From Enterobacteria phage ID204 Moscow/ID: a stretch of DNA of 5,475 nt. Positions within the stretch are counted from its first letter, which is position 1. Every line of letters starts with the position of its first letter. The stretch lies in sequence record KC237308. The stretch is one strand, 5' to 3'. Under the pieces are notes generated by a model. It did not search any database, had not been told where the DNA came from, and worked only from the letters and a program-made list of their open reading frames with translations. Made by a program: the position numbers and the translations under genes. Positions 62-5,475 of the stretch are shown here, piece after piece.

Positions 62-1723
62 ATGCAACAAGCTAGTGACTTCTACAACAAACCACATATC
101 GACGCTATAAAACCACTCGTTGAAACCGCTGGTATGTCTGTGCTCTCTCAATCTCCAAACCTCCGTATCTGGAAACAGGTAAATTCTCGCATCAAACTTC
201 TGGAAGAAATTCTCGCTCATTACACCAATGGTATACGCCGTGACGACAACGGCGACTTCTGGATGAATCCTAACTCTCAACTCGCAACTACAATTGCCTA
301 TCGTGCCCATCAAAAAGGACACAATCCAAAACTTATTCAATACCCTGATACATTCACTCTGGATGACATTATCCGTAAAAAGCCATTACCACAAAACGCC
401 CCTGACGAATTAAAACTCTCCGATGAAATCGGGGAAGACTATCGCCTTACAATCATCTCTCTAATCGAAGAAATGCAAGAAATCTACGACGTGCTCGGAC
501 AACTTGATATTAATAACACTATAGACCACAAACCTATCGGTAACGCCCACTGGAATCTACTCTATGAAAAACCTGTCTATAAACACTGGTATGAACTGGT
601 ATCAAAACGACCCCTTAAATCAATCAGAGACGACTACAACTATGCAAAGGCTAAGGGTATCAAAGATGAGTGCTCGAAAATCCTTGAGGAATCTACTATG
701 AAATCACGTAGGGGCTTTACCGTTCAAAGATTAATGAATGCTATGCGTACCGCTCACACTGAGGGCTGGTATGTTGTATTCGATACTCTTACTCTAGCCG
801 ATGACCGCTTAAAGGACTTCTATGATAACCCCAATGCTCTTCGTGACTACTTTCGTGATATTGGTCGCATGGTTCTCACTGCCGAGGGTCGTTCTGTGCA
901 TGATTCATCTGCGGACTGCTATCAGTACTTTTGTGTGCCTGAGTATGGCACCCAGCACGGCCGTCTACATTTTCACGCAGTGCACCTTATGCGCACACTT
1001 CCTCTGGGTTCTATCGACCCTAACTTTGGTAAGCTGGTGCGTACTAATCGGCAAATAAATAGCTTGCAAAACACATGGCCTTATGGTTACTCTATGCCCA
1101 TCGCGGTTAGATACTCCCAAGATGCGTTCTCACGCGCTGGCTGGCTCTGGCCTGTTGATACAAAGGGTGAACCCCTTAAAGCTACCTCGTATATGGCTGT
1201 CGGCTTCTACGTCGCTAAATACGTTAACAAAAAATCAGATATTGACATGGCCTCTAAAGGTCTAGGGAATAAAGAATGGAACAATTCACTCAAAACCAAA
1301 ATCAACCTGTTGCCCAAGAAAATCTTTCGCATCAGAATGTCCCGCAACTTCGGAATGAAGCTCCAGTCAATGAGTCACCTCTCAGCGGAAACACTCATTC
1401 AACTGACCCAAGTGGGTTACGACGTGACCCCGTTCAACAACATCTTGAAGCAGAACGCCAAGAAAGAGCTCAGATTGAGGCTGGCAAAGAAATCTGTCGC
1501 CGACGTTTTGGAGGCGCAACCTGTGACGACCAATCTGCTAAAATTCATGCGCAATTTGACCCGTCAAATCGGAGTGTCCAGCCTACAGAGTTTTATCGCT
1601 TCAATGACAACGAAATTAACAAGTATGGATATTTCTGATGAAACCAAAAACTACGTTGATACTTCAGGAATTGCTTCTACTCACTTACGAATTAAATCGA
1701 AGTGGACTGCTGGCGGAAAATGA
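62..1723 (+). CDS. A: Replication initiation protein A (HUH rolling-circle endonuclease), 553 aa
   Basis: The translation aligns along its whole length with phiX174 gpA as I recall it (for example the C-terminal block ...KSKWTAGGK). The HUH motif HFHAVH is encoded at 968..985 and the active-site tyrosines of YVAKYVNKK at 1208..1210 and 1220..1222. I chose the ATG at 62 because it follows GGAGG (48..52) at 9-nt spacing and matches the position of the phiX174 A start. The ORF track's ATG at 32 is in frame but has no Shine-Dalgarno and lies inside the predicted -10 element. Stop TGA at 1721..1723. Confidence 0.93.
500..529 (+). other. Viral (+) strand origin of rolling-circle replication, 30-nt core recognised and nicked by protein A; predicted nick between G506 and A507
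   Basis: Seen in sequence: CAACTTGATATTAATAACACTATAGACCAC, which matches the phiX174 origin 30-mer as I recall it. It lies inside gene A, encoding ...[10 protein letters not shown]..., as in phiX174. The nick position is taken from established knowledge of phiX174 gpA cleavage. Confidence 0.85.
698..1723 (+). CDS. A*: Protein A* (N-terminally truncated A, from an internal in-frame start), 341 aa
   Basis: In-frame ATG at 698 (MKSRRGF...) preceded by GAGGA at 686..690 with 7-nt spacing. Position and length (341 aa) match the phiX174 A* start as I recall it. Whether this start is used is inference by homology. Confidence 0.75.
1276..1638 (+). CDS. B: Internal scaffolding protein B, 120 aa, overprinted inside gene A in an alternate frame
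   Basis: ORF-track translation MEQFTQNQ...[15 protein letters not shown]...[16 protein letters not shown] aligns with phiX174 gpB (120 aa) as I recall it. A purine-rich AGGGA lies at 1264..1268 upstream of the ATG. Stop TGA at 1636..1638. Confidence 0.92.
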
Positions 1724-1790
1724 TGAAATTCAATCTCAACTTAAAGAATTCGAGAAGCTCTTACTTCGTCACCTTTCGCCATCACCTTAA
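1638..1790 (+). CDS. K: Protein K (small non-essential protein), 50 aa, overlapping the end of A and the start of C in a third frame
   Basis: Not in the ORF track (too short). Hand translation from the ATG at 1638 gives [50 protein letters not shown], with stop TAA at 1788..1790. It matches phiX174 gpK ([31 protein letters not shown]...) as I recall it. The ATG shares its A with the stop codon of B (TGATG). Confidence 0.8.
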
Positions 1791-1974
1791 CGTCTTGGCA
1801 AAGACTGACGCCCTCGACGAGGAAAAATACCTAAACATGCTAGGTGCTCTCCTCAAGGACTGGTTCCGGTATGAAGAGCATTTCGTACATGGTAAACAAT
1901 CAATGCTTGACTTATTAAATGAACGTGGACTATTATCCACATCAACAACCAACCCAAAAGGAAATACAAAATGA
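1720..1974 (+). CDS. C: Protein C (switch from RF replication to ssDNA synthesis and packaging), 84 aa
   Basis: Translation [58 protein letters not shown]... matches phiX174 gpC as I recall it. The ORF track begins at a GTG at 1702; the ATG at 1720 overlaps the A stop as ATGA, the same arrangement as in phiX174. Stop TGA at 1972..1974. Confidence 0.88.
1907..1936 (+). promoter_or_regulatory. Candidate sigma70 promoter for the D-E-J-F-G-H late transcript (pD): -35 TTGACT at 1907..1912, 18-nt spacer, -10 TATTAT at 1931..1936
   Basis: Seen in sequence. It lies inside gene C about 35 nt upstream of D, in the same relative position and with the same architecture as the phiX174 pD region as I recall it (TTGACA ... 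GCGTGGATTACTAT). Activity is inferred. Confidence 0.5.
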
Positions 1975-2426
1975 ATTCTAACGAATCTGCTGTTGCTTTC
2001 GCTACTGCTCTTGCATCTATCAAGCTCATCCAAGCTTCATCTGTGCTGGACCTGACCGAAGACGACTTCGACTTCCTAACCCGTGACCGTGTATGGATTG
2101 CTACCGACCGCTCCCGTGCTCGCCGCGCTATTGAGGCCTGCGTATATGGTACATTGGACTTTGTCGGATACCCTCGCTTTCCTGCTCCTGTTGAATTTAT
2201 TGCTGCCGTCATTGCTTATTATGTTCATCCCGTTAACATCCAGACAGCATGTCTTATTATGGAAGGCGCCGAATTCACCGAAAATATTATCAATGGTGTT
2301 GACCAGCCAGTTAAGGCCGCTGAACTATTCGCTTTTACCCTGCGTGTACGCGCCGGAAACACTGACCATGTTACACATGCAGAAACTAACGTACGTGAAC
2401 AATTACGTGCTCAAGGAGTAATGTAA
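1971..2426 (+). CDS. D: External scaffolding protein D, 151 aa
   Basis: Translation is near-identical over long blocks to phiX174 gpD as I recall it (TALASIKLIQAS.VLDLTEDDFDFLT...WIATDRSRARR...EACVYGTLDFVGYPRFPAPVEFIAAVIAYYVHPVNIQTACLIMEGAEFTENIING). AAAGGA lies 8 nt upstream. The ATG overlaps the C stop as ATGA. Stop TAA at 2424..2426. Confidence 0.96.
   Translation: MNSNESAVAFATALASIKLIQASSVLDLTEDDFDFLTRDRVWIATDRSRARRAIEACVYGTLDFVGYPRFPAPVEFIAAVIAYYVHPVNIQTACLIMEGAEFTENIINGVDQPVKAAELFAFTLRVRAGNTDHVTHAETNVREQLRAQGVM
2146..2421 (+). CDS. E: Lysis protein E (MraY inhibitor), 91 aa, overprinted inside gene D in the +1 frame
   Basis: Internal ATG at 2146 within the 2083..2421 ORF gives MVHWTLSDTLAFLLLLNLLLPSLLIMFIP..., matching phiX174 gpE (MVRWTLWDTLAFLLLLSLLLPSLLIMFIP...) as I recall it, including the transmembrane helix and the proline at position 21. 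GAGG at 2133..2136 lies 9 nt upstream. Length of 91 aa equals phiX174 E. Confidence 0.9.
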   Translation: MVHWTLSDTLAFLLLLNLLLPSLLIMFIPLTSRQHVLLWKAPNSPKILSMVLTSQLRPLNYSLLPCVYAPETLTMLHMQKLTYVNNYVLKE

Positions 2427-2506
2427 TGGCTAAAGGCTCTCGTCGGCGTTCGCCGTCCCGCTCTAAAGGTGCTCGCCTCTGGTATGTTGGCGGCACACAA
2501 TTCTAA
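2426..2506 (+). CDS. J: Small basic DNA-binding/packaging protein J, 26 aa
   Basis: Not in the ORF track (too short). Hand translation gives MAKGSRRRSPSRSKGARLWYVGGTQF, with stop TAA at 2504..2506. The C-terminal GARLWYVGG motif matches phiX174 gpJ as I recall it. AGGAG at 2414..2418 lies 7 nt upstream. The ATG shares one nucleotide with the D stop (TAATG). Confidence 0.88.
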   Translation: MAKGSRRRSPSRSKGARLWYVGGTQF

Positions 2507-3840: not shown

Positions 3841-3878
3841 TGACAGGGGGAAAAATTTTAATTTTTCGCCCCCTGTCA
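3841..3878 (+). other. Long imperfect hairpin in the F-G intergenic region (arms TGACAGGGGG / CCCCCTGTCA with an internal AAAAATT / AATTTTT sub-stem); candidate terminator and complementary-strand priming or primosome-assembly site
   Basis: Seen in sequence: 10-bp outer stem 3841..3850 with 3869..3878, plus an inner 7-bp A/T stem and a CG bulge. The phiX174 F-G intergenic region has a homologous hairpin around the same AAAAATTTTAATTTTT core as I recall it. The function is inferred from phiX174/G4 knowledge. Confidence 0.55.
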
Positions 3879-3927
3879 GGTTGAACAAGCGCAAGCGCGT
3901 TAGCTACTTAACTTAAGGACTACTACT

Positions 3928-4458
3928 ATGTTTCAATCTTACGTCTCTAATCACACTTCACCTCAAACTAATACAACTATCTCCGGCTCTAAAACCCCTG
4001 CCGCTCTGGCTCCTATTTTATCTACGCCAGAGCTTAGCAGGGCTACTTTAGCCGGAACTATTACTACTACTGCGTTAGCTTCATACGCTGGTCTAGCACA
4101 TATTGTGCGCATTGACCACACTAACGCTACTAATCATCAATTACTAACTATCGCAACCTCTCTCGCGTCTGCCTCGCCTATTACTGCGATGGCTGTACGC
4201 TTCGAGGTTGCTTCGGGTACGGTTCCTACCGCTATCCCTTCTACAGCTACTTACTATCCAATTCAAAATATCATCTCCGGTACCTTCTTATCTGTCCGAG
4301 ATGCCGTTACTATCGAGACTATTCCAACCACTTCGTCAAATGACGTCTATGCTGGTGTCTTTATCTTCTCTAATGCATGGGTTGCTGGCCCTGTCTCTGG
4401 CGTTATCTCTGTCAATCAGGTAAACCGTGAGGTTTCTGTACTCCAACCTCTTAAATAA
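3928..4458 (+). CDS. G: Major spike protein G, 176 aa
   Basis: Translation MFQSY.S...VRFE..S..VPT..P....YYP......G.F..V.D.VTI...P.......VY.G.......WV.......SVNQV..E...LQPLK aligns with phiX174 gpG (175 aa) at the conserved positions I recall. AAGGA at 3915..3919 lies 8 nt upstream. Stop TAA at 4456..4458. Confidence 0.93.
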   Translation: MFQSYVSNHTSPQTNTTISGSKTPAALAPILSTPELSRATLAGTITTTALASYAGLAHIVRIDHTNATNHQLLTIATSLASASPITAMAVRFEVASGTVPTAIPSTATYYPIQNIISGTFLSVRDAVTIETIPTTSSNDVYAGVFIFSNAWVAGPVSGVISVNQVNREVSVLQPLK

Positions 4459-4467
4459 GGAACTACT

Positions 4468-5475
4468 ATGTTTGGTGCAATCGCTGGCGGTATCGCCTCT
4501 TCTCTTGCTGGCGGACTCATCAACAAAGCCTTTGGAGGCGGTCAATCTGCCTCCTCTACTGGCGTTCAAGGTGATGTTCTCGCTTCTGACAATAATGTAA
4601 TCGGTGCTAATGATGCTGGTATCAAATCCGCTATTCAAGGCTCTAATCCACCTAATGGCCAACAAGCTGCTCCCAATGCTATTTCGGGCGTTCTCGCTGA
4701 CACTGGCAAAGACGCCCTATCTTCAATCACTGGCGCTGGCGTTAATAAACTTATGGAAAAAATCGGACTATCTAAAACTGCTTCTGATAAAGGCAAGGAC
4801 ACAAAGGATTATCTTGCTTCTGCATTCCCCGAGCTCAACCCGTGGGAACGTGCTGGCGCTGGTGCTTCGTCTGCTGGCATGGTTGACGCTGGCTTCCAAA
4901 ACCAAAAAGAACTAACTCGCATGCAGCTTGACAATCAAAAAGAAATCGCTAAGATGCAAAACGACACACAAAAGGATATCGCTGGTATCCAATCTGTCAC
5001 ATCCCGGCAAAATACTAAGGACTCTGTCTATGCTCAAAACGAGATGCTCCAATATAACCAAAAAGAATCTATGTCACGCGTTGGCTCTATTCTCGAAAAC
5101 ACAAGCCTCACCAAACAACAACAAACTTCTGAAATTATGCGGCAAATGCTTACTCAAGCTCAAACCGCAGGTCAACATTTTACAAATGACCAAATCAAAG
5201 AGCTTACACGAAAAGTTGGCGCTGATATTGATTCTGTCCGCGCTAACACTGACCGTACCCATGTAGAAACTCAACGCTCAAAACAGGAGGTTCAAAACTC
5301 CCGTTACGCTTCTTCACAAGTCGGTAAAACCGCTAAGGACGTCTCTAATGCAGTTACTGATACAGCTAGCTCTATTGTTGATTATTTTCGTGGTATTGAT
5401 AACAAAGTGGCAGAAACTTATAACAACTATTTCAAAGATGGTAAATCCGACGGAATCGGGTCGAACATCAAATAA
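4468..5475 (+). CDS. H: Minor spike / DNA pilot protein H, 335 aa
   Basis: Translation matches phiX174 gpH as I recall it over long blocks ([15 protein letters not shown]...GGGQ...[23 protein letters not shown]...[73 protein letters not shown]...[39 protein letters not shown]...DGK.DGIGSN). AAGGA at 4457..4461 lies 6 nt upstream. Stop TAA at 5473..5475, which is the last codon of the window. Confidence 0.95.

Follow-up and report, generated by a model that had tools for sequence, protein, structure and literature searches.

Gene overlaps in phages of the phiX174 type have been textbook matter since 1976-77. The window analysed here (the whole stretch of DNA, 5475 nucleotides, nt) is the complete circular single-stranded DNA genome of coliphage ID204 Moscow/ID, placed in Bullavirinae, Gequatrovirus talmos, by the NCBI taxonomy; the system in question is its block of overlapping genes A (with A*), B, K, C, D, E and J. 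In phiX174 (Sinsheimervirus), the A/A*/B/K/C/D/E/J block has a topology and junction strings identical to those of ID204, for about 76% nt identity in the block. B (120 amino acids, aa) and E (91 aa) have the same length in both phages; lengths differ for J (38 aa in phiX174 vs 26 aa in ID204), K (56 vs 50 aa) and A (513 vs 553 aa). Much closer to ID204 are ID2 (NC_007817), FL68 and FL76, which have the same gene order, the same coordinates from A* to J (A from 62), the same four junctions and 95-100% identity across A to F and H. The G4 clade (ID8, ID12, ID11) belongs to the same genus as ID204 (about 85% nt identity) and shares its B/K and A/C junctions, but in G4 there is no overlap between C and D (TGAAATG), and D and J are 42 nt apart. 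E overruns the D stop by 10-37 nt in G4, ID8 and ID12, and reaches into J in ID8 and ID12. Since G4 differs at C/D, at D/J and at the end of E, the junctions of ID204 resemble those of phiX174 and not those of the type of its own genus.

ID204 is, with a probability estimated at about 95%, a phiX174-type phage whose positions 1276-2506 form a non-structural/scaffolding block packed exactly as in phiX174. All genes lie on the + strand in the order A(A*)-B-K-C-D-E-J-F-G-H, and this order and the length of 5475 nt fit the Bullavirinae type (about 5.4-6.1 kb). Gene A (62..1723; replication initiator, 553 aa; Pfam PF05840, 1e-58; exact match to AGC34599.1) includes A*, which has an in-frame internal start at 698. 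Gene B (1276..1638; internal scaffolding protein, 120 aa; PF02304, 2.8e-48, 163.8 bits; AGC34601.1, exact) lies in the +2 frame of A. The B stop (TGA, 1636-1638) and the K start (ATG, 1638-1640) overlap by 1 nt in the string TGATG (1636..1640). Gene K (1638..1790; 50 aa; PF12283, 8e-18; exact match to AGC34602.1, 'protein K') is read in the +1 frame of A up to 1723, then in a frame shifted by 2 with respect to C; the regions read twice are 1638-1723 (A and K frames) and 1720-1790 (K and C frames). The C start (1720-1722) and the A stop (1721-1723) are combined in ATGA (1720..1723). Gene C (1720..1974; DNA maturation protein, 84 aa; PF12025, 4e-36; AGC34603.1, exact) ends in a second ATGA (1971..1974), which holds the start of D. 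Gene D (1971..2426; external scaffolding protein, 151 aa; PF02925, 1e-84; AGC34604.1, exact) carries in its +1 frame gene E (2146..2421; lysis protein, 91 aa; AGC34605.1, exact), which runs from ATG 2146 to TAA 2419-2421 and ends 5 nt short of the D stop. The D stop and the J start form TAATG (2424..2428). Gene J (2426..2506; DNA-binding core protein, 26 aa; PF04726, 1e-12) is 100% identical to that of ID2 and is preceded by AGGAG (2413-2417; energy of pairing with the anti-Shine-Dalgarno sequence, anti-SD, -8.0 kcal/mol). The gene coordinates, the four junction strings and the two-frame regions given in an earlier note on this DNA all proved exact on recheck. Its description of a classic phiX174 architecture was also borne out: the gene topology is the same and the four junction motifs agree with phiX174 in every letter.

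The A/C junction of ID204 reads ATGATG, so that a second in-frame ATG of C (1723-1725) gives an alternative arrangement of the TGATG type. This second ATG is made by T1724 (A in ID2), the C protein beginning with MMKF vs MKKF in ID2; a gene caller run on a metagenomic relative, L016 (see below), picked the second ATG (83 aa).

The identity of the genome was established at protein level. The look-up gave exact matches to GenBank entries AGC34599-AGC34609 for A, B, K, C, D, E, F, G and H (9/9), and no difference was detected between the proteins of the window and the GenBank proteins of ID204, whose record has the same length (5475 nt). Each of the 10 predicted proteins matches its own microvirus Pfam family above the cut-off (Phage_GPA, Phage_B, Protein_K, Phage_C, gpD, Microvir_lysis, Microvir_J, Phage_F, Phage_G, Microvir_H). 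By megablast against the phage collection, the nearest record is ID2 Moscow/ID/2001 (96.2% nt identity over 91% of the ID204 query), followed by FL76 and FL68 (95.3% over 91%), then by the G4 clade (about 85%). The comparison set consisted of 15 annotated genomes from three Bullavirinae groups plus two circular metagenomic relatives (Logan contigs L016 and L017). The latter were reached through cluster mates (P0008 and P0041), the G and A proteins of ID204 itself having no match in the contig index. L016 is an independent circular contig of 5475 nt (SRR6872429), with about 1-3% difference from ID204 per gene. A designed phiX174-like genome was considered and rejected: the proteins match a GenBank isolate of 2012-13 and a metagenomic contig is 98-99% identical. 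The block of overlapping genes is already known, and B ('internal scaffolding protein'), K and E ('cell lysis protein') are already annotated in GenBank for exactly this genome. Only mildly new are the comparative details, i.e. the distribution of the junctions among clades, the local map of constraint, the 50-aa K and the S17N change in E.

The set TGATG/ATGA/ATGA/TAATG, together with an E gene ending 5 nt before the D stop, is common to ID204, ID2, FL68, FL76, L016, L017 and the phiX174 clade. The full set of four junctions is not present in G4, ID18 or alpha3. Both the C/D and the D/J overlaps are absent from G4, ID8 and ID12; the alpha3 clade has spacers of 26-42 nt at A/C and C/D, and D and J do not overlap there either. 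In place of ATGA and TAATG, ID18 and WA14 carry overlaps of 14 nt (C/D) and 8 nt (D/J). The only junction common to all clades compared is the 1-nt B/K overlap (TGATG; TAATG in ID21), found in all 15 compared genomes with annotated B and K, from three genera. The phiX174 architecture thus fits the species of ID204 better than it fits G4, the type of its own genus.

Constraint on synonymous sites was measured as the share of third positions that vary among codons whose amino acid is conserved. In nine gequatroviruses, the third base varies in 47% of such codons in A alone, 28% in A under B (p=0.0016 vs A alone) and 18% in A under K (p=0.02 vs A alone). The corresponding values are 72% for D alone, 31% for D under E residues 1-35 (p=0.0005 vs D alone) and 62% for D under the rest of E (not significant); they are 48% for C alone and 39% for C under K (not significant). 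With 13 genomes and finer bins, 85% vary in the N-terminal third of B (1276-1400), 38-45% in 1401-1637, 20% in 1638-1720, 35% in 2146-2205 (E residues 1-20) and 71-100% in the rest of D. The trend of pairwise pS by region agrees with these counts. Pairwise pS/pN was kept as support only, because gene overlap biases standard dN/dS and a mosaic genome can look constrained. In three-frame translations, the host frame is mostly the better conserved one (A rather than B, D rather than E, C rather than K); only in 1638-1720 is this reversed, with 78-89% aa identity in the K frame vs 70-73% in the A frame.

Synonymous constraint is therefore real but local: it is strong under the N-terminus of K and under E residues 1-20, of moderate strength where A overlaps the C-terminal two-thirds of B, and not seen elsewhere. 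The strong constraint on synonymous sites claimed in the earlier note holds for A under K, for D under E 1-20 and for A under the C-terminal two-thirds of B, but neither for the N-terminal third of B nor for the C-terminal part of E. In the second frame, selection is thus confined to the N-terminal half of K, the first 20 or so residues of E and the C-terminal two-thirds of B, the coat-binding part of that protein. These two-thirds of B are conserved across the three genera, and the conserved aromatic C-terminus (…EFYRFND…GYF) is kept in 15 genomes.

Codon usage bears on the relative age of the frames. In 1276-1637, the B frame is genome-like (T3, i.e. T at third codon positions, of 0.35 vs 0.37 in single-coding genes; score similar to a codon adaptation index of 0.58), whereas the A frame is not (T3 0.15, score 0.42). 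The host frame is the genome-like one both in 2146-2418 (T3 of 0.43 for D vs 0.13 for E) and in 1638-1720 (A and not K). Because it is the B frame that has genome-like codon usage, B is probably the older frame and the C-terminus of A the overprinted one. The topology in the description of B as overprinted in A is right, but the history is probably the reverse. This agrees with the codon-usage work of Pavesi, reviewed in PMC8227390, which concluded that K and E are de novo genes and that A came to overlap B by growing into it.

The lysis protein E of ID204 matches Microvir_lysis (PF04517; 2e-12, 47.2 bits for a cut-off of 25). Residues 10-29 (LAFLLLLNLLLPSLLIMFIP), encoded by 2173-2232, form the transmembrane helix, including Pro21; the retention of this helix and of Pro21, asserted previously, is confirmed, with S17N as the one deviation. 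E is assigned as a putative MraY inhibitor on the strength of its alignment with E chains in the solved structures of the MraY-E-SlyD ('YES') complex, 8g02_B (phiX174 E; 2.5e-28, 90 residues) and 8g01_B (ID21 E; 1.1e-20, 77 residues). The transmembrane segment LAFLLLL-LLLPSLLIMFIP is identical to theirs except at residue 17. The N-terminus of ID204 E reads MVHWTLS (MVRWTLW in phiX174), HWTLS being found also in the ID21 E of the solved complex; the C-terminal half diverges from both chains, as it does among all E proteins. In a survey of 37 E sequences (cluster representatives plus ID204), the helix LAFLLLLSLLLPSLLIMFIP is identical in 29 and Pro21 is present in all 37. Residue 17 is Ser in 34 of them, Arg in two and Asn in ID204 alone; L016 has Ser17, and ID2, FL68 and FL76 have S17 and S43 where ID204 has N17 and N43. 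Codon 17 is AAT (2194-2196), and the change, G2195A, is silent in D (GAG to GAA). In the record of the phage Lilleen (MK629526), E has L at the position of Pro21 (…LLLSLFLLLSL…), an exception to the otherwise invariant Pro21. For the E proteins of phiX174, G4, alpha3 and ID52, MraY inhibition with lysis, SlyD dependence and resistance by mraY alleles are known, and P21A abolishes lysis by phiX174 E and ID52 E (PMC11126076). According to work cited in PMC8227390, lysis requires no more of E than its N-terminal membrane domain. By analogy with phiX174, the N-terminal helix of ID204 E, kinked at Pro21, would insert into the membrane, and E, with SlyD on its C-terminal part, would block MraY at its active-site groove; lipid I synthesis would stop and the cell would lyse at septation.

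The four junctions of ID204 are stop/start overlaps of 1 or 4 nt, and the genes differ in their predicted ribosome-binding sites. Anti-SD energies are -3.1 kcal/mol for K, which is at background (mean of all ATGs, -2.1), -4.8 for C (weak), -8.0 for J and -9.5 for A. Recognisable Shine-Dalgarno (SD) sequences of their own precede B, D, E and J (-5.6 to -8.0 kcal/mol). The alpha3 clade, whose C and D genes do not touch the preceding stop codon, has stronger SDs for them in the spacers (-7.4 and -8.8). K and, less markedly, C combine a weak ribosome-binding site with a start directly at an upstream stop codon, so that they would most likely be translated by ribosomes that terminate on B and A and restart. 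The translational coupling put forward in the earlier note is accordingly reasonable mainly for K and C; judged from these sequence features, termination-reinitiation is likely at K and plausible at C, whereas D and J have no need of it. A single mRNA would serve for B, K and C, as in phiX174, and a second one for D, E and J. From work on the phiX174 group, B and D are expected to act as scaffolds, C as the switch from replication to packaging, J in DNA condensation, and K as a dispensable accessory protein that modulates burst size.

Two alternative explanations concern the nested genes of this block. One takes the alternative-frame open reading frames (ORFs) B, K and E for chance products of T-rich third codon positions; the other, more restricted, takes K for a gene in decay in the ID204 lineage, the stop at 1788 being the first step in the loss of a dispensable gene, so that K could not be called retained. 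The chance of such ORFs was estimated with 2000 synonymous-codon shuffles of the host gene, in which the length of the alternative-frame ORF was scored. The 120-aa B ORF (+2 frame of A) was reached in 0/2000 shuffles and the 91-aa E ORF (+1 frame of D) in 2/2000; the 50-aa length of K is not beyond chance, its run in the A part (+1 frame) being matched in 607/2000 (about 30%). Long open runs also occur in unannotated frames (116 aa in +1 of H, 91 aa in +1 of G), which, like the length of K, favours chance. Against it, each of B, K and E matches a curated family, B and E exceed the shuffles, all three are open in the 15 other complete Bullavirinae genomes compared, and E has a solved structure bound to its target. 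The minus-strand ORF of 119 aa at 1853-2212 offers a contrast, being broken in all five closest relatives. Chance origin is effectively refuted by the Pfam matches, the E structure and the conservation, and retains a practically negligible probability. K in particular is accepted as a real gene; as its length gives no signal, this acceptance rests on homology (PF12283 at 8e-18 and conservation across three genera).

As for decay, K has 50 aa in ID204 vs 56 in every other gequatrovirus and phiX-group genome compared (ID2, FL68, FL76, G4, phiX174), and vs 53-62 among the 15 other genomes, counting the K ORF read in Lilleen. A G to T change at 1788 creates the early stop (TAA, 1788..1790) from GAA and is silent in C (CTG to CTT, Leu). 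Complete mutagenesis of phiX174 showed that nonsense variants of K are tolerated, with no loss of laboratory fitness (bioRxiv 10.64898/2026.07.25.740675), and the length of the K ORF is not above chance; these points are in line with decay. Yet the loss concerns only the six residues of a variable tail (ERTGKD): K falls short of the full 56 aa, but still aligns to positions 1-49 of the 56 of PF12283, with 64.8 bits for a cut-off of 25. The K of alpha3 has 53 aa, and 53-62 aa are found across the alpha3 group, which points to a naturally flexible length and a variable tail; in 1638-1720 it is K, and not A, that is the better conserved frame. The same stop and an intact 50-aa K are found in the second genome L016, about 1.5% diverged; because this contig is independent, the stop is a lineage trait and not an error. 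Decay of K is therefore considered very unlikely. Of the claim that B, K and E are all retained, what stands is that the three frames are open; it has to be amended in that K is truncated to 50 aa and E carries S17N.

A third explanation concerns the overlaps themselves, which could be a by-product of compaction or of gene origin (A and C having been extended, K and E born de novo), every gene initiating independently. It draws on the relatives that lack the C/D overlap (G4, ID8, ID12) or have spacers at A/C and C/D (alpha3), and on ID18 and WA14, whose overlaps are neither ATGA nor TAATG. The recognisable SDs of B, D, E and J and the ordinary RNA folding of the junctions also speak for it, as does the viability of a decompressed phiX174 from which the A/C and K/C overlaps had been removed (bioRxiv 10.1101/2020.06.10.143693). 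In the same construct, however, protein C fell about 6-fold. Furthermore, the 1-nt B/K overlap is kept in all 15 genomes with annotated B and K although the SD of K is at background, and stronger SDs have appeared in the spacers of those clades in which C and D are unlinked. Independent initiation of every gene is thus held to be rather unlikely, and restart after termination at K, and perhaps at C, is preferred.

Several points weigh against a functional reading of the interlocked block. Because overlaps are absent at several junctions in G4, ID8, ID12 and the alpha3 clade, they are not required for the gene set to work. RNA folding at the four junctions revealed no structure beyond that of shuffles (z -1.07 to +0.80) and no masking of start sites; since the junctions lack unusual structure, coupling by unmasking of a structured start is not supported. 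In D/E, pS against the talmos genomes is 0.035 against 0.22, and a recombination mosaic could partly mimic selection. The shortened K and the S17N change in E count on the same side, and the gene functions given for ID204 are all transferred from phiX174, G4, ID21 and ID52.

Other features of the genome were recorded. The gene A ORF opens at ATG 32; its start is probably 62, as proposed from the annotation of ID2 and from GGAGG (49-53; anti-SD -9.5 kcal/mol), which precedes ATG 62. The viral-strand origin (30 nt, CAACTTGATATTAATAACACTATAGACCAC, 500-529 in gene A) is identical in phiX174 (4299-4328) and in 12 other loci; at protein level, gene A as a whole has only about 68% identity. A sigma-70-like promoter match inside C, upstream of D (1907..1936, + strand; TTGACT, 18-nt spacer, TATTAT; 10/12 consensus matches), is by its position a candidate counterpart of the phiX174 promoter pD. 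Another near-consensus sigma-70 match is found at 4-33 (TTGACA, 18-nt spacer, TATTAT), with a terminator-like hairpin directly 3' of it (34-53); the GGAGG that precedes A falls within the 3' arm of this hairpin. In phiX174, pA, T_H and the A ribosome-binding site are arranged in the same way (bioRxiv 10.64898/2026.07.25.740675). Long perfect hairpins occur between F and G (3841-3878, GACAGGGGG…CCCCCTGTC) and after J (2510-2527, AGGGGCTTCGGCCCCT). They were not picked up by a simple terminator scan; presumably they are equivalent to elements of phiX174 and G4 that act as terminator and as complementary-strand origin. An Rfam scan of both strands of the whole window matched no family.

The most notable feature of the genome lies outside the overlap block and looks like a cassette replacement of gene G (3928-4458, major spike). 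G has about 50% nt identity to that of ID2, FL68 and FL76, the replaced segment being about 3906-4440, while its flanks are 96-100% identical to ID2 (F 96%, H 97.5%). The breakpoints are sharp, one just upstream of the G start and one just before the G stop. The best match of the G protein in the phage collection is 56.5% (WA14, ID18); the ID204 type of G is also found in L016 and in a few metagenomic fragments.

Antisense genes were considered and rejected. The 119-aa minus-strand ORF at 1853-2212, opposite C and D, is cut to 61 aa in ID2, FL68, FL76, L016 and L017, and, unique to ID204, is most likely due to chance. A second minus-strand ORF (1782-2033; 83 aa, 84-aa run) recurs in L016 only. 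Unannotated +1-frame ORFs are present in H (4604-4915, 103 aa; 4928-5266, 112 aa); long +1-frame open runs in G and H would be expected from T-rich third codon positions. The Lilleen record, with six annotated genes (L009 in the comparison), contains intact unannotated B (1188-1550, 120 aa), K (1550-1714, 54 aa) and E-like (2064-2357, 97 aa) frames. The 90% cluster of D includes 'proteins' of 281-946 aa from fungal and tapeworm assemblies (Rhizophagus, Gigaspora, Funneliformis, Penicillium, Hymenolepis, Rodentolepis), many of them on 5463-nt contigs; the set looks like microvirus genomes, present as contamination or spike-in, that were wrongly annotated as eukaryotic genes.

As discovery, the overlap block carries little weight; the comparative points serve mainly for the calibration of overlapping-gene detectors and annotation pipelines, which still miss B, K and E in some records (Lilleen, Logan contigs). 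The complete interlocked junction set is a trait of the phiX174 and ID2 clades and not of all Bullavirinae. Second-frame constraint clusters in those parts of the overprinted proteins that have a known or expected function: the transmembrane start of E, the coat-binding end of B and the N-terminus of K. Changes that are silent in the host frame can shorten or alter a nested protein. It is conceivable, if distinctly unlikely, that the ID204 lineage retuned two overprinted accessory genes by such changes, G1788T (K, in at least two field genomes) and G2195A (N17 in the otherwise almost constant MraY-binding helix of E, in ID204 only). Were either change to alter burst size, lysis timing or dependence on MraY or SlyD, it would be a case of natural adaptation confined to the second frame of an overlap.

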